64,000 nucleotides of DNA from Dongiaceae bacterium (GTDB lineage: Bacteria > Pseudomonadota > Alphaproteobacteria > Dongiales > Dongiaceae), in contig JBDHTX010000010.1 in assembly GCA_039808885.1 (NCBI GenBank), forward strand, positions 2,403 to 66,402, written 5' to 3'. The notes below the pieces were generated by a model. That model saw only the letters and a list, made by a program, of their open reading frames with translations. It was not told the origin of the DNA and did no database searches. The position numbers and the translations under genes are program-made. Each line of letters starts with the position of its first letter. Position 1 is the stretch's first letter. Below are positions 55,769-64,000 of the stretch, piece by piece.

Positions 55769-57268
55769 TCAGCCCTCCGGTGTCGCTGGCCGGCCAGTGG
55801 CCGCCTGCTCATCCACCCCACGCACCAGGGCCTCGCCCAGCGCGTTCTTGACGATCAGGTCGATCTGGCGAACGACCTGCAGCGCCTCCTTCAAGCGGTT
55901 CTGCTCCAGGTCCAGCAACCGGCGCACTTCCACCTGCGACGTGGCCGGCAGGCCGTTGCCGAGGTCGGCCAACTGCTGATCCAGGATCAAACCCAGGATC
56001 ATCTCATGGGCATCTAGCAGGCAGGCCAGATCGTCCTCGCCCAGGATCCCCGCTTCCATGGCGGCGCGCCAGCGCTCGCGCGAGGATCGCGCCCGGCAGC
56101 CCAGCCGCAGGGCCAGCACCCGCGCACCGGCAACGATCGGAAACAAGCCGCCGACCTTGAGGTCGATGCGGCCCTTCTGGGTCTTGAAGCGGCCGAACCA
56201 GCCGAGCGCGTCCTTCTTCTCCGAGATCGCCTTGGCCATCAGGTTGAGGAACAGGCGCGCCGTGCGGGCGCGCATCGAGACGTCGTTCAGGGCCTCGGCC
56301 AGCGCGCCGTCGCCGCCCGCGGCGGTGAAATCATAGAAGATGTCGGCATTGAGGATCGCACGCGGCTCCGGCCGCTCGAACCAGATGGAGATGCTTTCCT
56401 GCCAGCCGGCCAGGTTGTGGCGCAGGTTGCGTTTCGACGCCATGACTCCGCCGCGGCAGAATGCCAGCCCAGCCTGGTTCAGCACGTGCGCCACGCGCTC
56501 GCCGAATTCCTGGAACCAGGGGTAGTCGTCCTCGGCGCCGCCGTGGATCAAGGAGTTGTCCTGGTCGGCGGAAAGCAGGCTCTCGCCCCGCCCCGCCGAG
56601 CCGAGCACGAGCAGGCACCACGAGGCCGGAGCCTCTCCGCGACGCTCCGCTTGCATGGACGCCGATGCCAGTTCGCCCGCGCGCGCGGTCATGTCCCGGA
56701 TGACACCGGAAATCACCGCGGCGACCTGGTATGCCGGAACGCCCTCGGCGCGCAGCGACCGCCCCAGTTCGGGCAGCCGCCCATATGCCGCCTTCAGGCC
56801 CCGCCAATCGGTCGCCTCGGCGACCATGTCGGCGATGCCGAGAGCAACCATTGCGCGCTGGCGCAGCACCGACCGCGCGTCCAGCAGGCCGGCATAGCGG
56901 CCGTCGGGCGCAACAGCCGCGAGATGACGGAACCCAAGACGGCTCATCCGCGCGATCGCCACGTAGAGAAGGGCATCGGCCCGCACCGTCGCGACCGGCG
57001 TGCTCATGATCGCGGTGATCGGCGCGGTCATCGGGGCGCCGCCGGCGGTGACCTTGCACAGCACGTCGCGCTCGGTGACGATTCCGATCGGACGGCCGTC
57101 GCCATCGAGGACAATTGTCGCGCTGGCCGGTCCGTGGACCAGCGCCTCCACGGCCGCCGCGACGCTGGCGCCGGGTTCCAGCGTGCGCGCCACGGGGTTC
57201 ATCAGCTCGCCGACCCGATGCTGGAACGGGAACGGGTCAACGCGCGTCACGGGAGCCGTCTCGGTCAT
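55769..57268 (-). CDS. CBS-pair + DUF294 nucleotidyltransferase + DUF294_C protein
   Basis: Two CBS domains (GIVTERD; RHLAAV); LGSAGRGE...DQDN nucleotidyltransferase motif; IDLKVGGLFP; no cNMP-binding domain. Confidence 0.88.
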   Translation of the reverse strand: MTETAPVTRVDPFPFQHRVGELMNPVARTLEPGASVAAAVEALVHGPASATIVLDGDGRPIGIVTERDVLCKVTAGGAPMTAPITAIMSTPVATVRADALLYVAIARMSRLGFRHLAAVAPDGRYAGLLDARSVLRQRAMVALGIADMVAEATDWRGLKAAYGRLPELGRSLRAEGVPAYQVAAVISGVIRDMTARAGELASASMQAERRGEAPASWCLLVLGSAGRGESLLSADQDNSLIHGGAEDDYPWFQEFGERVAHVLNQAGLAFCRGGVMASKRNLRHNLAGWQESISIWFERPEPRAILNADIFYDFTAAGGDGALAEALNDVSMRARTARLFLNLMAKAISEKKDALGWFGRFKTQKGRIDLKVGGLFPIVAGARVLALRLGCRARSSRERWRAAMEAGILGEDDLACLLDAHEMILGLILDQQLADLGNGLPATSQVEVRRLLDLEQNRLKEALQVVRQIDLIVKNALGEALVRGVDEQAATGRPATPEG

Positions 57269-58602
57269 GACGCGCCAATTCCCCGCACCCTGCCGCCCGC
57301 GCGGGCCAGGCGCTTGGCCGCCTCGGCCTGCAGCGCCTGCGCGCCCGCCAGGGTCGCGACCCCGCGCCCGACCAGGATCGGCACCAGGCGGGAATAGATC
57401 TCCGCCGTGGTGAGCGCGTCGCCCAGCGCGGAATGACGCCCGATCACCGGCACGTCGAAGGCGATTGCGAGGTCGTCCAGCAACAGCGATTTCGCCTCCG
57501 GAAACAGCGCGGCATAGAGCAGCATGACATCCAGGCTCGGTCCTGGCGACCAGTCGCGCCCGCATCGCCGCATCTCGCCTTGCAGCATCCGCAAATCGAA
57601 ATCGGTGTGGAAACCGATCAGGGCCAATCCGCTCGCCGCCGCCGCAACCTGCTCGGCGACGGCGGCAAAGGGCGGCGCGCCGGTGACCATGCTGTTCGAG
57701 ATGCCGTGAATGGCGATCGTGCGATTGGGGATGCTGCGGCCGGGATTGACCAGCAGGTTGAGCGTGGAAGACCGGTAGAGCCGCTCACCGTGCAGCCGGA
57801 TCGCGCCGATCGAGATGACCCGGTCGATGCGGGGATTCAAGCCAGTGGTCTCGGTATCGACAGCAAGCGCCGAGAGCTCCGAGAGGGCCGTTCCCGGCCC
57901 GGGCGTCACCGGCACGGGCGGGCGGTCGTGCAGCGACAGATCATGCTCGCCGCGCAAGGTTGCCGCCTCGGCCGCCGGATACCGCAGCAGCGCGCTGCCC
58001 TCCTGGCCGATCACCGTGACCGTCGCCGGGAAGGAGTCGGACCATATGGTGAAGAGCTCCGTATCCACCGGCCGTCCCGCGGCGCGGGCCCGGTGGATGG
58101 CCTCACCCAGGGATTGCCGCGACAGGGTTTCGAACACGCTCTTGCCGATGACCCGCTCGGCGTCGCCGAACAGCGGCCGGCCCGCCGTGTTCACCAGGCT
58201 GATCAGACCTTCCTGGGTCAGCACGGCGATGCCGTCCGGCAGCGCGTTCAGCACCTCTTCCAGGCGGCGGTACACCGTCGATTGCTGGTCCGTGCGCAGG
58301 CCGATCATGTCGATGATGGCGAGTTGGACGCGGTCCACGGCGTCGGCGTCGGGCGCGACGTCGCGGCGCGCCAGGTCCTGCTGCCCGGCCACCAGGTTGA
58401 CCCAGCCCCGCAGGGCCTCGACCCGCAGTTCCAGCTGCCGCCCTTTGCGGAGCAGCAGCAGGCCGCCGCCGCCAGCGAGGACCGCGAGGCACGCGGTCAC
58501 CAGATGCGCCGCCAGGCCCGGCGGCGCGGCGTCAAACCAGACCATGGCGGCCAACCCGCCGGCACCGAGGATTACCGCTCCAAGACCGAATTCCGTGCGC
58601 AT
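57265..58602 (-). CDS. Membrane-anchored 2TM-PAS-DEDDh (DnaQ-like) 3'-5' exonuclease-fold protein
   Basis: Two hydrophobic helices; PAS LNALPDGIAVL; VDTETTGL, HTDFD, HSALGDA. Confidence 0.85.
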   Translation of the reverse strand: MRTEFGLGAVILGAGGLAAMVWFDAAPPGLAAHLVTACLAVLAGGGGLLLLRKGRQLELRVEALRGWVNLVAGQQDLARRDVAPDADAVDRVQLAIIDMIGLRTDQQSTVYRRLEEVLNALPDGIAVLTQEGLISLVNTAGRPLFGDAERVIGKSVFETLSRQSLGEAIHRARAAGRPVDTELFTIWSDSFPATVTVIGQEGSALLRYPAAEAATLRGEHDLSLHDRPPVPVTPGPGTALSELSALAVDTETTGLNPRIDRVISIGAIRLHGERLYRSSTLNLLVNPGRSIPNRTIAIHGISNSMVTGAPPFAAVAEQVAAAASGLALIGFHTDFDLRMLQGEMRRCGRDWSPGPSLDVMLLYAALFPEAKSLLLDDLAIAFDVPVIGRHSALGDALTTAEIYSRLVPILVGRGVATLAGAQALQAEAAKRLARAGGRVRGIGAS

Positions 58603-58700
58603 TCACCCTGCCCCGCCGGCGCCCACAGGAGCCCTTCGACCAGCTTCACAGCTTAAGGCTAGCCCTCCGGCAAGGGAATTCCATTGCCCAGAATGCCGCG

Positions 58701-58726
58701 CCGGGACCTTGCCCGGGACCTTGCCC
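58701..58726. repeat. Exact 12-bp tandem duplication in a divergent promoter region
   Basis: CCGGGACCTTGC twice (58701-58724). Confidence 0.8.
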
Positions 58727-58839
58727 AAGACCCGCCCGGCCCGTCGGTCTTTGCTGTTGCCAGCCATTTCGAAGGGTTGAATGATGCCCTGACGGGCGCG
58801 CCGAAGCGCGAATCCGGTGCGGCAGGGCAAGGTCCGGCG

Positions 58840-61419
58840 ATGGCGGTTTCTCAGGTCGAATCACGCGAACAGGGCTGGAGCGACGCCCTTCAGCCGGCGG
58901 CGTTGCGGCAGGCGGTCCTGATCGCCGGCGGCTATTTCCTGTGCTTCTGGATCGGCTATTCCTTTGCCGCCGACCACAACATTTCCGTGGTCTGGCCGCC
59001 CAGCGGCTTCGCCCTGGCGATGGTCTACCGGTTCGGCGTCCGCGCCGTCGCCCCCATCTGGATCGCCGATGCGCTGGCGCAACTGATCTTGATCGGCGCG
59101 CCGTTCCTGCCCTCGGTCCTGCTTCCCGCCCGCGCCGTCGCCGAACCGCTGATCGCCGTCCTTCTGCTGCGCCTCGTCGGCTTCGACCAGCGGCTGCGGC
59201 GGCCGCGCGACATCGCCGCCATGGTCCTGGTGGGAGCGCCGATCAGCACGCTGCTCAATGCGCTGGCCACGCTCTACATTTCCTGCGTGCAAGGCGCCGT
59301 CCCATGGGCGGATTACTGGCATCACGTCCTGATCTATTGGGCCGGCAACGCCGGGGGCATCCTCACGCTGGCGCCGGGCCTGCTCATCATCTTCGATCGC
59401 GATGCCGCCTCGGGCAACGTGCAACACTGGATCGAGGCCCTGGCCTTGTGCCTGCTGGCCTCCTTCGTGCTGCAGATCCCGCTGATGCTGCCGGACGTGC
59501 CGGAAGGTCCGACCGCGGTCTATTTCATCTTCCCGATGGTGGCGTGGATTGCGATGCGGGTGCCGCGACGCGTCGCCGTCACGGTGACGCTCGGAATCTC
59601 GGCAGCGATCCTGCTGACGCTCCAGCTCGCCGCCGACCATCCGCTGGGCGGGCTGTCGCTGATGGACGCGCCGGTCGGCATCCAGAGCTTCATCGCCTGC
59701 CTCAACCTGACCTGCCTGCTGCTGGCGGCGCTCAACCTGGAAAAGACCGAGATCGCCGCCCGGCTGCGCGAGAACGAGCAATTCCTCCGCCTTGCCATCC
59801 TGGGCAGCAATGACGGCATCTGGGACTGGCACCCGCGGGAACAGAGACTCTGGCTGTCGCCGCGCTGGAAGGCTCAGCTCGGCTATGGGCCCGATGAACT
59901 GCCGGATACGCCCGCCACCTGGTCGGCCCTGGTCCACCCGGAGGATCGTGAGCGGGTCGCCCAGCGGTTCAGCGACTTCCTGGAGGACCGCAGCGAATCC
60001 TTCGAGCAGGTCCAGCGCTTCCGGCACAAGCTGGGCCATGACGTCCACATCCTGACCCGCGGCATCAAGATGATCGCGGATGACGGCACGGTCATCCGCG
60101 TCGTCGGCGTGCATACCGACGTGACCGAACTGGTCAACGTGCAGGACGAGTTGCGCCACCAGGCGGCCTCGCTCGCCAGCCTTGCCCGCGGCCTGGAGGA
60201 GCAGCGGCGCGCGGCCGACGCGGCCAGCGCCGCCAAGTCACAGTTCCTCGCCACCATGAGCCACGAGATCCGCACGCCGATGAACGGCATCATCGGCATG
60301 CTGTCGCTGATGCTGGATTCGCCGCTGGACCGGGAACAGCGCCGCTGGACCACCAGCGCGCTCGATTCTGCCGAGACCCTGCTCACCATCATCAACGACA
60401 TCCTCGACCTGTCCAAGCTCGACGCCGGCAAGACCGAGGTGGAGTCGCTCGATTTCGACGCCACCGCGCTGATCGACGGTGTCGTCGCGCTGCTGCAGGT
60501 CCGCGCCAACGCCAAGGGCATCGCGCTGCACACGCAGATCGCCGACAACATGCCGGCGCGGCTGCGCTCCGATCCCACGCGGCTGCGCCAGATCCTGTTC
60601 AACCTCGTCGGCAACGCTGTCAAGTTCACCAAGACCGGCGGCGTGCTGGTGCGCGCCGCGGTCGAATCCGTCCACGACGACACCTGCGAACTGCGCGTCG
60701 AGGTCGTCGACACCGGCATCGGCGTTGCTCCCGACCAGCTGCCCAATCTGTTCGAGCCGTTTCACCAGGCCGAGACCGGCATGACGCGACGCTACGGCGG
60801 CACCGGGCTCGGCCTCGCCATCGTGCGCCGCCTGATTCACCTGCTGGGCGGCAGCGTCACCGTGCGCAGCGAGATCGGCATCGGCAGCACCTTCACGATC
60901 CTGCTGCCCTGCCTGATCGCCGTCGCATCCCGCGGCCCGGCGCGGGACGTCGGCACCGGGCCGCTGCCGCGGCACGCCAAGGAGACCCGCATCCTGATCG
61001 CCGAGGACAATGCCATCAACCGCGAGCTGGCAACCCAGATGCTGGCGCGGCTCGGCCTGACGGGGACCACCGTCAACAACGGTCGGGAAGCCGTTGCCGC
61101 CGCGTCCGCAGGCCTTTTCGACATTATCCTGATGGACATTCAGATGCCGGAGATGGACGGCCTGGCGGCCGCCGCCGCAATCCGCAAGCTGCCCGGCCTC
61201 CTGGGCCGGGTGCCGATCGTCGCGGTCACCGCGAATGCCATGGTCGGCGACCGGGAACGTTACCTGGCGGCCGGATTCGACGACTACCTGGCGAAGCCGC
61301 TGCGTCTCGAGCAGCTCTCCGAGATCATCCTGCGTTGGACCGGAGAGCTGCCGCCATCCCGGTCGACGGGTACCGGCCGTGATGGCGACGCCGTCCCGAC
61401 CGATTCCGGAGAGCGGTGA
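58840..61419 (+). CDS. Hybrid histidine kinase MASE1-PAS-HisKA-HATPase-REC (start uncertain)
   Basis: MASE1-like N-terminus VVWPPSG; [11 protein letters not shown]; [11 protein letters not shown]; [10 protein letters not shown]; GGTGLGL; ILMDIQMP; no HPt. Confidence 0.9.
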
Positions 61420-61422
61420 CCG

Positions 61423-62940
61423 ATGCCGACAGCGTCGATGCGTCTGCGGGTCGGGCTGATCGTGGCCCTGGTTTCATTGTCGCTGGCCATCGCCTTCGTG
61501 GCGCAGAAATTGCACGCGGGTTCGGCCGATGCGGGTGCCGGTTCGGGCAGCTGGTACGTCGCCCTGGTGCTGATGCTGGTCAGCCTCGCGGTCCTCGGGT
61601 ACCTGCTTCTGGCCCTTGCGCGCGACAAGGCGGGCGAGAGCGCCGCCGCAAGAAACGAAGCCGCGCAAGCTTTGCTGGAGACCGCCGCCGCGACCGCGCC
61701 CAAGCCCGTGGACCTGCGCCCGAGCTATTCCGTCCTGCCGTCGCCCGAGGCCGGCCACCTGGTGGCGACCGGCGCCCTGATCCGCCGGTTGTGCCACGAG
61801 CTCAACAACGCGCTTGGACCGATCCAGGGCTTTGCGGAGCTGCTTGGCAACGATCAGCGGATCGGCGAGGCGCAGCGGCGGCAAGTGACCAAGATCGGCG
61901 AGGCGACGGCCGCCGCCCAGAGCGCGGTCCAGGACTTCGCCGCCGCGTTGACCTGGTCCAAGGACCACGCCACGGCGGTGAATCTGGGCGCGATGACGCG
62001 CGCCGCCGCCGCCGCCGCCCAGGCAGCGATCGGCCGGCCCATCGCGGTGACGCTGCCGCCCGGCCGGGACATCCAGATCACCGCGACCGAGGTGGAGACC
62101 GGGCAGGCGATCCTGCACCTGTGCGCGGCGCTTACACCGCTCATCGCCGAGCGCGACGTACGGCTGGAGATCGCGGTCGATTCGGCAGTCGGCGCGGCCC
62201 GCTCGAGTTTGGGCGACGGCGCCGCCTCCGGGCAGCGATTGCAGATCTGGTCCGACCCGTTCGATCCTGAGCACGCCAGGGTCCAGCTCGGCCTGCTGCA
62301 GAGCAGCTGGCGCTACGGCCGGGTCCAGCTCACCTGTGTCGGCCACGGCTGGTCACGTGACCTGGCGAGCCGGCTGTTCGTCGCCGACCTCACGGAAGAG
62401 CACCATCCGAGCTGCCTTTCGATGACCGTGCTCGGCGGGTTGATGCTGGATCTGGGCGGCGTGGTCATGATCGACACCTGTCCGCTGCGACAGCTGACGG
62501 TCACCCTGCTGTGGCCGGCGCGCATCCCCTCGGAGGTCGCCGCCCCGCTGGAGACCGACACCACGGAGGACGATCTCGACGCGCTCATCATCCACGCAGC
62601 CGAGCCGGCGGCGGAAGAGCTGTCGCGGCGGCTGGGTGGCTTCGGCTTGAGGGTGGCTTCCACCACCAGCCCGGAAGCCGGGCTAGACCTCATCGCCGAA
62701 ATGGGGGCGCGGTGCCGCGCCATCCTGCTCGGCGATACGCCGGACGCCGCATTGCTGGAAAAGATCCTCGCCATCCGACCGAGCGCCGTGGTCCTCACCC
62801 TGGAGGCCGAGCCCGGCACGACGCTGGAGGGCCAGGAAGCCTGGCAGATAGATCCCGATCGGGAGGCTCTGGGCCGCCTCGCGGCCCGCCTGCGCCGTGG
62901 CGGCACGCTTCCTCCCGAAGGCTGGGACGCCGCTAGCTGA
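61423..62940 (+). CDS. Membrane-anchored pseudo-histidine kinase / putative phosphotransferase with a degenerate receiver
   Basis: Two TM helices; H-box RRLCHELNNALGPIQGFAELL; N, G1 and G2 boxes degenerate; receiver lacks the acidic pair and the Lys. Confidence 0.7.
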   Translation: MPTASMRLRVGLIVALVSLSLAIAFVAQKLHAGSADAGAGSGSWYVALVLMLVSLAVLGYLLLALARDKAGESAAARNEAAQALLETAAATAPKPVDLRPSYSVLPSPEAGHLVATGALIRRLCHELNNALGPIQGFAELLGNDQRIGEAQRRQVTKIGEATAAAQSAVQDFAAALTWSKDHATAVNLGAMTRAAAAAAQAAIGRPIAVTLPPGRDIQITATEVETGQAILHLCAALTPLIAERDVRLEIAVDSAVGAARSSLGDGAASGQRLQIWSDPFDPEHARVQLGLLQSSWRYGRVQLTCVGHGWSRDLASRLFVADLTEEHHPSCLSMTVLGGLMLDLGGVVMIDTCPLRQLTVTLLWPARIPSEVAAPLETDTTEDDLDALIIHAAEPAAEELSRRLGGFGLRVASTTSPEAGLDLIAEMGARCRAILLGDTPDAALLEKILAIRPSAVVLTLEAEPGTTLEGQEAWQIDPDREALGRLAARLRRGGTLPPEGWDAAS

Positions 62941-63559
62941 ACTGCCCCAATTGCGCCAGTCGAACCGCGATCTGGGTGCGGTTCTTGGTCTCCAGCTTGC
63001 GACACAGGTTGCGCACGTGCAGCTTGACGGTGACCTCCTGCAGCTCGAGCGCGCGGGCGATTTCCTTGTTGGAAGCGCCCTTTACCAGCATGGCGGCCAC
63101 TTCGAGCTCGCGCGGCGTCAGGAATTCCGACCCGATGATCTTGAGCCCCTCGGGCGCCGCCCCTGGACGGAGCAGATCCGTCGGGGCGTAGGTCTCCCCG
63201 GCCGCCAGCTGACGGATCGCGGCGATCAGCTTGCTGCCAGAGAGCGTCTTGGGAATGAAGCCGCGGGCGCCAGCCGCCAGGGCCGACATCGCGTGCGACT
63301 TCGAGACCATGCCGGTGATGATCGCGACGGCCGAGCCCGGACAATGCGCGACCATCCGTTTCAGGCCCTCGAGGCCGTTCATCCCGGGCATATTGAGATC
63401 CAGCAAAGTCACGTCGTAGCAGCCATTGGCCAGAACCATTGCCCAGGCGTCTTCGAAATTCCGTGCCGTCTCGACACTGGATTCGGGCGCGTGACGCTCA
63501 ATCATGGCCTTGAACCCGTCACACACCAACTCGTGATCGTCCGCCAGAAGAATTCGCAC
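62933..63559 (-). CDS. NarL/LuxR-family response regulator
   Basis: ILLADDH, LLDLNMP, GFIPK, LTPRELEV...SNKEIA...TVKLHV; GTG start. Confidence 0.92.
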   Translation of the reverse strand: MRILLADDHELVCDGFKAMIERHAPESSVETARNFEDAWAMVLANGCYDVTLLDLNMPGMNGLEGLKRMVAHCPGSAVAIITGMVSKSHAMSALAAGARGFIPKTLSGSKLIAAIRQLAAGETYAPTDLLRPGAAPEGLKIIGSEFLTPRELEVAAMLVKGASNKEIARALELQEVTVKLHVRNLCRKLETKNRTQIAVRLAQLGQFS

Positions 63560-63662
63560 CCAGCCGCCCCAGCACTGTTGCGCGTGGATTTTCGGGACAC
63601 TACGTCCAAAAAGCGGTTGTGGAAAGATCAAAGGGTGGGTCCAGAGGACTACCCCATCCGGG

Positions 63663-64000
63663 CTAGAATCCCCGGAGGGGCAGGTCCGGCCCCCGGCGCA
63701 GCCAGTTGTCGGCGGGATAGCGGCACGCGCCATCGACCACGTGCAGCGTATAGGCATGCCGCGATCGGTCCGACAGGTTGGCGCCGGAGAAATGCGGCAG
63801 CAGGCCGTGGATCACCACGAGGGATCCGCGCCTCGCCTCCAGGGCGACTCGCGGGCCGTCCGACCAGGGCGTGGCATCCAGGCGTTCCGTCACCAGCCGG
63901 CCGTCGCGGCGCAGGAAGCGCGTCTTCATCGGCTGCTTGTGCGCCCCCGGCAGGCAGATCATGGCGCCGTTTTCCAGCGTCGCATCCTCCACCGCGAACC
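63663..64000 (-). CDS. 3' part of a second PhyH-family dioxygenase (truncated by the window edge)
   Basis: FAVEDATLENGAM...PGAH; IHGLLPHFSGANLS...RHAYTLH. Confidence 0.8.
   Translation of the reverse strand, partial: FAVEDATLENGAMICLPGAHKQPMKTRFLRRDGRLVTERLDATPWSDGPRVALEARRGSLVVIHGLLPHFSGANLSDRSRHAYTLHVVDGACRYPADNWLRRGPDLPLRGF

Follow-up and report, generated by a model that had tools for sequence, protein, structure and literature searches.

The window analysed here is a stretch of 64,000 nucleotides from a Dongiaceae bacterium (GenBank assembly GCA_039808885.1, contig JBDHTX010000010.1, positions 2,403 to 66,402 of the forward strand). Towards its end lie three neighbouring genes, which encode a hybrid sensor kinase, a degenerate kinase homologue (called here the pseudo-kinase) and a response regulator. 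The hybrid kinase gene (58684..61419, plus strand) encodes a protein with MASE1, PAS, HisKA, HATPase_c and receiver (Response_reg) domains according to Pfam, which is BarA/TorS/LuxQ-like according to NCBIfam. Its TGA stop codon (61417-61419) is followed by the nucleotides ccg and by the ATG (61423) of the pseudo-kinase gene (61423..62940, plus strand), an open frame of 505 amino acids with a GGAG about 11 nt 5' of this ATG. Given the 3-nt gap, which had already been noticed in a preliminary description made from the sequence alone, and the GGAG, the pseudo-kinase gene is translationally coupled to the kinase gene. At every locus examined, it starts either 3 nt past the kinase stop codon or overlapping it. 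The third gene (62933..63559, minus strand, GTG start) encodes a regulator of 208 amino acids, composed of a receiver and a GerE/LuxR helix-turn-helix, and it is convergent with the pseudo-kinase gene, the two overlapping by 8 nt at their ends. The preliminary description had placed downstream a LuxR regulator with an intact Asp. The Asp (D54) is indeed intact, as are the DD pair, the Thr and the Lys of this receiver, but the regulator gene is not the downstream gene of the kinase operon, because it lies on the minus strand and converges on the pseudo-kinase gene. This LuxR/FixJ-type regulator is the presumed terminal acceptor of the system. A promoter and terminator scan of positions 58300-64000 gave nothing relevant to the operon above shuffled expectation.

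The regions of the pseudo-kinase, all encoded on the plus strand, were delimited by alignment and by an AlphaFold2 (AF2) model of the full protein, whose mean predicted local distance difference test score (pLDDT) is 75.9. Two N-terminal hydrophobic helices (residues ~6-32 and 43-66; 61438..61620) form a predicted membrane hairpin, as indicated by the AF2 secondary structure and by loop indels in the alignment; the loop between them is short, differs in length among relatives and contains no sensor domain. A predicted disordered tether follows (residues 71-105; 61633..61737), which is poorly conserved and has pLDDT values below 50 for residues 71-103. Since a sensor would not fit into so short a loop and the tether does not form a continuous signalling helix, the N-terminus appears to be a membrane anchor rather than an input domain. 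The dimerization and histidine phosphotransfer (DHp) hairpin, identified by Pfam, alignment and AF2, spans residues 106-180 (61738..61962), with helices modelled at 108-141 and 149-177, and carries the H box CHELNN. Next comes a degenerate catalytic and ATP-binding (CA) domain of the Bergerat fold (residues 181-368; 61963..62526), which is supported by motif alignment, fold matches and substitution rates and is modelled as an alpha/beta domain at 188-366. It is separated from the C-terminal domain by a linker with pLDDT below 50 for residues 371-381. This linker, although predicted to be disordered, contains the motif A-A-P-L-E (residues 373-377; 62539..62553), in which A374, P375, L376 and E377 are invariant. 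Conserved as it is, this short linear stretch may act as a docking peptide for a partner. The C-terminal region is a CheY-fold pseudo-receiver (residues ~383-495; 62569..62907), supported by alignment, AF2 and Foldseek; a (beta-alpha)5-like domain is modelled at 385-492, and residues 368-505 modelled alone again adopt a receiver fold (pLDDT 74).

Comparison with profile and structure collections was one of the checks proposed in the preliminary description. Among Pfam profiles at E up to 1, HisKA is the only match (residues 118-171, E 6.7e-5, 23.3 bits, below the cut-off of 26.9), and HATPase_c, Response_reg, Hpt and HPTransfase (PF10090) do not match the pseudo-kinase. NCBIfam gives partial matches, far below cut-off, to VirA-like (PRK13837) and PRK13557 kinases, and none of the curated Pfam or NCBIfam families covers the protein. 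In Foldseek searches of the PDB, the core matches the DHp-CA kinases LvrB, KinB, ZraS, CckA, HK853, RetS, DivL and ShkA, and also the phosphotransferase ChpT (4fmt, TMt 0.60; 4qpj), while the C-terminal domain matches receivers, such as those of HP1043, PhoP, PmrA, Spo0F and CckA REC (TMt 0.76).

The state of each catalytic motif was read from an alignment with seven active relatives, with which the HMM alignments to ZraS and KinB agree. The H box is well preserved: His125, the presumed phosphoryl carrier, is encoded by the CAC codon at 61795..61797, inside RRLCHELNN, and HELNN conforms to the HisKA-type pattern H-(E/D)-x-x-(T/N), the PDB kinases aligning across the box. The motifs required for ATP binding, which the preliminary description regarded as wrecked, are lost in the whole family. 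The N box of active relatives (NLxxNA) has become HLCAA (H232), the Mg-binding Asn being replaced by Ala236 within QAILHLCAAL (residues 228-237). The G1 box (DxGxG) has become xxGHGW, seen as VGHGW at residues 306-310 of the window protein, and its adenine-binding Asp is lost and variable. From the F box (DPFFTTK) only F319 is kept, and the G2 lid (GxGLGL) is lost throughout. The two G1 glycines and the GG of the last box are still present. The pseudo-receiver is degenerate to a similar extent: the acidic pair DD is replaced by H-x, the Lys is lost, and the column of the phospho-Asp is occupied by G, A or Q (G436 in the window protein). D437 is located one residue off this column, and relatives have E, K or Q at its position. 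All these losses (N box, G1 Asp and G2 lid; acidic pair, Asp and Lys of the receiver) extend across the family.

The pseudo-kinase is a real gene under purifying selection. A search of a collection of 5.8 billion proteins detected 88 homologues at 44-90% identity, nearly all of them full length; the few that are named belong to Dongiaceae or Dongia deserti. In an alignment of 39 sequences reaching down to 44% identity, neither H125 nor N129 varies and E126 is almost invariant; H125 is found in 39/39 homologues and also in P0090, a more distant member with 31% identity. R152 and R153 on the second DHp helix are invariant as well, and the face of the first helix beneath the His is conserved. Conservation extends to the degenerate domains. 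For instance, GQAILHLCAA, WSDP, RYGR, GHGW and DT.P in the middle domain are invariant or nearly invariant, and so are AAPLE, LDAL, E..AE.LSRRL (helix 1), GLRVASTT and EMG..C in the C-terminal part. The ratio of non-synonymous to synonymous substitution rates (dN/dS, Nei-Gojobori) is 0.14-0.17 for the whole gene, 0.10-0.13 for the pseudo-CA domain and 0.12-0.14 for the pseudo-receiver in three close pairs, to which these values are confined, since dS is saturated in this GC-rich genome and distant pairs are unreliable. Thus, two expectations of the preliminary description, that orthologues would keep the His and would share the pattern of degeneration, are borne out, and so is its description of a membrane-anchored pseudo-kinase with a retained histidine.

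The distribution of the gene is narrow. In a comparison of 83 genomes from the GTDB family of the window, a single Dongia-like genus accounts for all occurrences: the pseudo-kinase is present as a single copy in 13 of its 14 genomes, among them the genome from which the window comes, and is missing from the genomes of the other 16 genera. A sample of 400 genomes from across the class yielded no further occurrence. The three genes are inherited together, synteny in relatives being another of the checks that the preliminary description proposed. A regulator orthologue (77-100% identity) is adjacent in 13/13 of the module-bearing genomes of the genus, and the MASE1 kinase orthologue is adjacent to the pseudo-kinase wherever the contig permits. 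From G058, a complete genome in this genus, all three genes are missing at once. Three metagenomic relatives show the same order: CBS-DUF294 and RNase_T genes oriented outwards, then the MASE1 hybrid kinase, the pseudo-kinase, the convergent REC-GerE regulator and a PhyH gene. P0090, the sole distant member, is equally degenerate and is found in the same layout of kinase, pseudo-kinase and convergent REC-GerE regulator.

With respect to its origin, the pseudo-kinase is a descendant of a CckA/VirA/FixL-type hybrid kinase, a lineage different from those of the known examples, as judged from sequence. An exhaustive search of 1.84 billion cluster representatives yielded nine family clusters at E up to 1e-30, followed by ordinary HisKA-HATPase_c-REC hybrid kinases with ~25% identity over residues 110-460. 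The H box of the pseudo-kinase and its best NCBIfam partial matches also point to the CckA/VirA/FixL group. This group includes natural partners of FixJ/GerE-type regulators, and an H box of the HELNN type goes, as in FixL-FixJ, with regulators of the GerE type. It had been proposed that the protein is ChpT-like. As a statement of kinship this does not hold: the PF10090 profile of ChpT gives no match at E up to 1, the only ChpT of the same genome is located on another contig (C51:3661-4029), and the alignment of the pseudo-kinase to this ChpT by hhalign has a probability of 1.5%. The RLCH resemblance is, at the level of sequence, a generic H-box context. The pseudo-kinase is not a recent duplicate of the upstream kinase either, since the two show no significant BLASTP similarity and have different HisKA subtypes. 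As a separate observation, the true ChpT gene lies directly upstream, on the same strand, of an open frame of 1043 amino acids with an Hpt domain (contig C51:3207-4029; loci L006, L009). We know of no description of such a pairing.

The partner kinase has an intact receiver and no Hpt domain by Pfam, in line with the preliminary description. The E-D pair, Thr and Lys of this receiver are all present, as is its phospho-Asp (~residue 818 if numbering starts at the TTG at 58684), and the protein ends only ~29 residues after the domain. The nearest homologues of this MASE1 kinase outside the genus (37-40% identity, ~1000-1050 amino acids) possess a C-terminal extension, which in G041 is a canonical Hpt domain with the motif HGLKG (Pfam E 2e-9, above cut-off). 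In clade B of the pseudo-kinase genus (ten loci) and in the P0090 module, the kinase bears a homologous tail of ~125 residues, in which Arg occupies the canonical His column and a nearby His is not conserved. MASE1 hybrid kinases of the sister genus g9 (L032, L034, L037 and L038) also end in an HPt-like tail, within their last ~130 residues, in which the His column is occupied by E, Q or D. A profile of the clade B, P0090 and g9 tails matches the Hpt tail of G041 by hhalign (96.8%, E 2.8e-10), and its best PDB match is the HPt domain 7c1i (E 0.0024). In the clade of the window (five loci) the tail has been deleted. Wherever the pseudo-kinase is present, the kinase tail carries Arg or is deleted, and the kinase is therefore throughout without a usable HPt histidine. 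This stepwise decay and loss of the tail, as read from sequence comparison, supports the idea of a relay through the pseudo-kinase. No regulator orthologue was found beside the Hpt-bearing kinases from outside the genus, the best candidate having 46% identity and lying ~350 kb away in G041.

These observations could be accounted for if the pseudo-kinase were a membrane-tethered, dimeric histidine phosphotransferase acting between the neighbouring kinase and the LuxR-type regulator, a reading drawn from sequence to which we give about even credence. According to this proposal, a hybrid-kinase ancestor would have become a phosphotransferase by losing ATP binding and receiver phosphorylation. The MASE1 hybrid kinase would autophosphorylate and pass the phosphoryl group to the Asp of its own receiver; this receiver would dock on the DHp bundle of the pseudo-kinase and phosphorylate His125, from which the group would be transferred to Asp54 of the convergent LuxR/FixJ-type regulator. 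The two-helix hairpin and the floppy tether would serve only to hold the protein at the membrane beside the kinase, and the pseudo-CA domain and the pseudo-receiver would have been retained as docking or regulatory surfaces. In HisKA kinases, the acidic residue at position +1 from the His is required for kinase activity and the Thr or Asn at +4 for phosphatase activity (PMC3510030). Since the +4 Asn is kept, the DHp domain would probably also drain phosphate from the regulator while the kinase is off, as the bifunctional PhyT does. A combined role as shuttle and phosphatase, by analogy with PhyT, is plausible because the +1 acidic residue and the +4 Asn are both present. We infer these phosphotransfer steps, the dimerization and the roles of the pseudo-domains from the conserved residues and the gene context.

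Several facts weigh against this reading. Genus g9 possesses a His-less kinase tail but neither the pseudo-kinase nor an adjacent regulator; therefore, the loss of the HPt histidine by itself does not demand a pseudo-kinase, and the strict argument that the pseudo-kinase was needed once the HPt was lost is weakened. The genome also encodes a stand-alone Hpt protein of 170 amino acids and an Hpt-REC protein of 261 amino acids (L007:1027-1812 (-), L008:1342-1854 (+)), which could serve HPt-less hybrid kinases. The pseudo-CA domain, helix 1 of the pseudo-receiver and AAPLE are conserved beyond the needs of a simple shuttle, which hints at an additional or different function. The loss of the ATP motifs in the sequence is not a proof of absent nucleotide binding. 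Covariation between the DHp domain and the two candidate receiver partners in 16 loci gave no usable signal, since there is almost no variation in the DHp face or in helix 1 of either receiver.

A broader proposal is that the pseudo-kinase represents a new class of dimeric histidine phosphotransferase, composed of transmembrane hairpin, DHp, pseudo-CA and pseudo-receiver, which replaced the HPt domain of the MASE1 kinase. The relatives would then preserve the stages of this replacement (canonical HPt, tail with Arg for His, deletion), and the surfaces of the two pseudo-domains, together with AAPLE, would provide private docking that insulates the relay from other HPt or ChpT routes. We advance this proposal tentatively and are more inclined to doubt it than to accept it.

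Other explanations have to be considered. The pseudo-kinase could be a dedicated phosphatase or phosphate sink, that is, a negative regulator which dephosphorylates the LuxR-type regulator or drains the kinase receiver without any forward transfer. N129 is invariant, and the equivalent Thr or Asn is specifically required for phosphatase activity in HisKA kinases (PMC3510030), kinase activity is implausible with the ATP motifs lost, and PhyT itself was initially read as a phosphatase (PMC5898713). However, a phosphatase does not need a phospho-accepting His, and yet H125 is invariant and E126, which is linked to kinase activity and transfer, is nearly so. Besides, a phosphatase leaves unexplained how the regulator would be phosphorylated, the kinase being without HPt. 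For these reasons we consider this explanation unlikely, though worth keeping in view.

An allosteric pseudo-kinase or scaffold in the manner of RetS, DivL or ShkA, which would bind the kinase or the regulator, or sense a ligand by way of its pseudo-CA domain or pseudo-receiver, and would modulate signalling while carrying no phosphate, is in our opinion also unlikely, without being far-fetched. The pseudo-CA motifs (WSDP, RYGR, GHGW), helix 1 of the pseudo-receiver and AAPLE are the most conserved parts of the protein, and the cores of RetS, DivL and ShkA are among its structural neighbours. In addition, pseudo-receivers can sense ligands, and ShkA binds cyclic di-GMP (PMC7010744, PMC6969517). 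The invariant His and Asn of the H box and its acidic residue are, however, hard to explain without phosphoryl chemistry, and the membrane loop has no sensor domain. The pseudo-kinase and the partner kinase belong to different HisKA subtypes with no detectable similarity, and DHp heterodimers between them are therefore less likely. DivL, the option mentioned in the preliminary description, is a poor fit, since it lacks the His that is invariant in this family.

It is very improbable that the protein is still an autokinase, whether through an unusual nucleotide site or by means of a different phosphodonor. It does retain E126, a residue associated with autokinase activity in HisKA proteins (PMC3510030), as well as both G1 glycines, the Phe of the F box and the GG of the last box. 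However, every member has Ala in place of the Mg-binding Asn and has lost both the G2 lid and the adenine-binding Asp, the column of which is variable, and HATPase_c does not match at E up to 1. That the gene is a pseudogene or a mis-called open frame can practically be dismissed, because the lost catalytic motifs resemble decay only if one sequence is considered alone, and a decaying gene is incompatible with 88 homologues bearing identical substitutions, a dN/dS of ~0.15, a single copy and conserved synteny.

Phosphotransferases derived from kinases are already known, and the proposed relay resembles several of them in its logic. ChpT of Caulobacter does not bind ATP, has an atypical Bergerat fold and transfers phosphate from the receiver of a hybrid kinase to a terminal regulator (PMC3433190). 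Like the pseudo-kinase, it combines a DHp domain of the four-helix-bundle type, with a phosphorylatable His, and a Bergerat-fold domain. However, ChpT is a soluble two-domain protein of ~210-250 amino acids, whereas the pseudo-kinase adds the membrane hairpin, the tether and the pseudo-receiver, and its H box is of the ordinary HisKA HExxN type, without sequence membership in the ChpT family. PhyT (formerly PhyP) of Sphingomonas melonis accepts phosphate on its His from the receiver protein SdrG and passes it to a regulator, and it plays a negative role too (PMC5898713). It shares with the pseudo-kinase an alphaproteobacterial origin, a membrane anchor, homology to histidine kinases and a degenerate ATPase domain. 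Differences concern the DHp domain, which in PhyT is of the HWE/HisKA_2 type with an HRxxN motif (PMC5898713) and in the pseudo-kinase of the HisKA type with HELNN. They also concern the context, since PhyT has no pseudo-receiver and serves the PhyR-NepR-EcfG stress pathway, while the pseudo-kinase lacks a sensor loop and is accompanied by a GerE-type regulator.

At the pathway level, the closest parallel is the RcsC-RcsD-RcsB system of Enterobacteriaceae, in which an HPt-less hybrid kinase, a membrane-anchored pseudo-kinase with a relay His and a LuxR/FixJ-type regulator act together (PMC3762810). RcsD relays via a canonical C-terminal HPt and its kinase-like core has no His; the pseudo-kinase, in contrast, keeps the His of its own DHp domain, has no HPt match and ends in a CheY-like pseudo-receiver. 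Spo0B, of the Bacillus sporulation phosphorelay, likewise acts as a dimeric phosphotransferase built from a helical hairpin and an alpha/beta domain of kinase origin, and it works between two receivers (cited in PMC3433190 and PMC5898713). Unlike the pseudo-kinase, it is soluble and lacks any receiver-like domain, and no sequence relationship between the two was detected. The CckA/VirA/FixL-type kinases (PRK13557, PRK13837), which outside the family are nearest to the pseudo-kinase in sequence, are collinear with it in DHp, CA (including an SDP-containing insertion) and receiver. They differ in that their N, G1, F and G2 boxes are all kept, as are DD, D, T and K of the receiver; of these, the pseudo-kinase family retains only the F-box Phe and the glycines. 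In DivL, the phospho-His is replaced by Tyr and the function is independent of phosphotransfer, in contrast with the invariant His125.

Thus, the phosphotransferase logic is known from ChpT, PhyT and Spo0B and, at the pathway level, from RcsC-RcsD-RcsB, and what appears to be new is the domain layout. The preliminary description did not recognise the architecture as one already described. This stands for the layout, the combination of transmembrane hairpin, HisKA-type DHp with His, pseudo-CA and pseudo-receiver not being found in the literature searched, but not for the logic, which has precedents in PhyT (PMC5898713), ChpT (PMC3433190), Spo0B and RcsD.

If the proposed function is true, the pseudo-kinase family would be a further, independent case of phosphotransferases arising, in a new domain arrangement, from a HisKA hybrid kinase. 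Genomes commonly encode degenerate histidine kinases, which are usually annotated as "hypothetical" or "histidine kinase". To our knowledge, few of them (Spo0B, ChpT and PhyT) have been shown to be phosphotransferases. The relatives also document, with unusual clarity, an HPt domain becoming redundant and being lost. The reach of the family is limited, its members having been found in one genus and a few metagenomic lineages. The system is a simple one of three proteins and has relatives that can be cultured, Dongia deserti among them; it could be used to study how relay specificity is rewired and why a pseudo-CA domain and a pseudo-receiver are kept.

With regard to the surroundings of the three genes, two genes next to that of the MASE1 kinase and divergent from it encode a CBS-DUF294 nucleotidyltransferase and an exonuclease of the RNase_T family (55769-58602, minus strand). 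They hold this position in the three metagenomic relatives (L001, L003 and L004), with a weak PAS match in L003. On the other side, the regulator gene is preceded, on its own strand, by a gene for a PhyH dioxygenase and by a cluster that resembles those for nucleoside catabolism (63663-64000, minus strand, in the window; L001 9191-15482; L003 and L004). This cluster comprises genes for phosphopentomutase-like protein, thymidine phosphorylase, DeoC, purine nucleoside phosphorylase, cytidine deaminase and ABC permeases, and it is a possible target or context for the signalling module.

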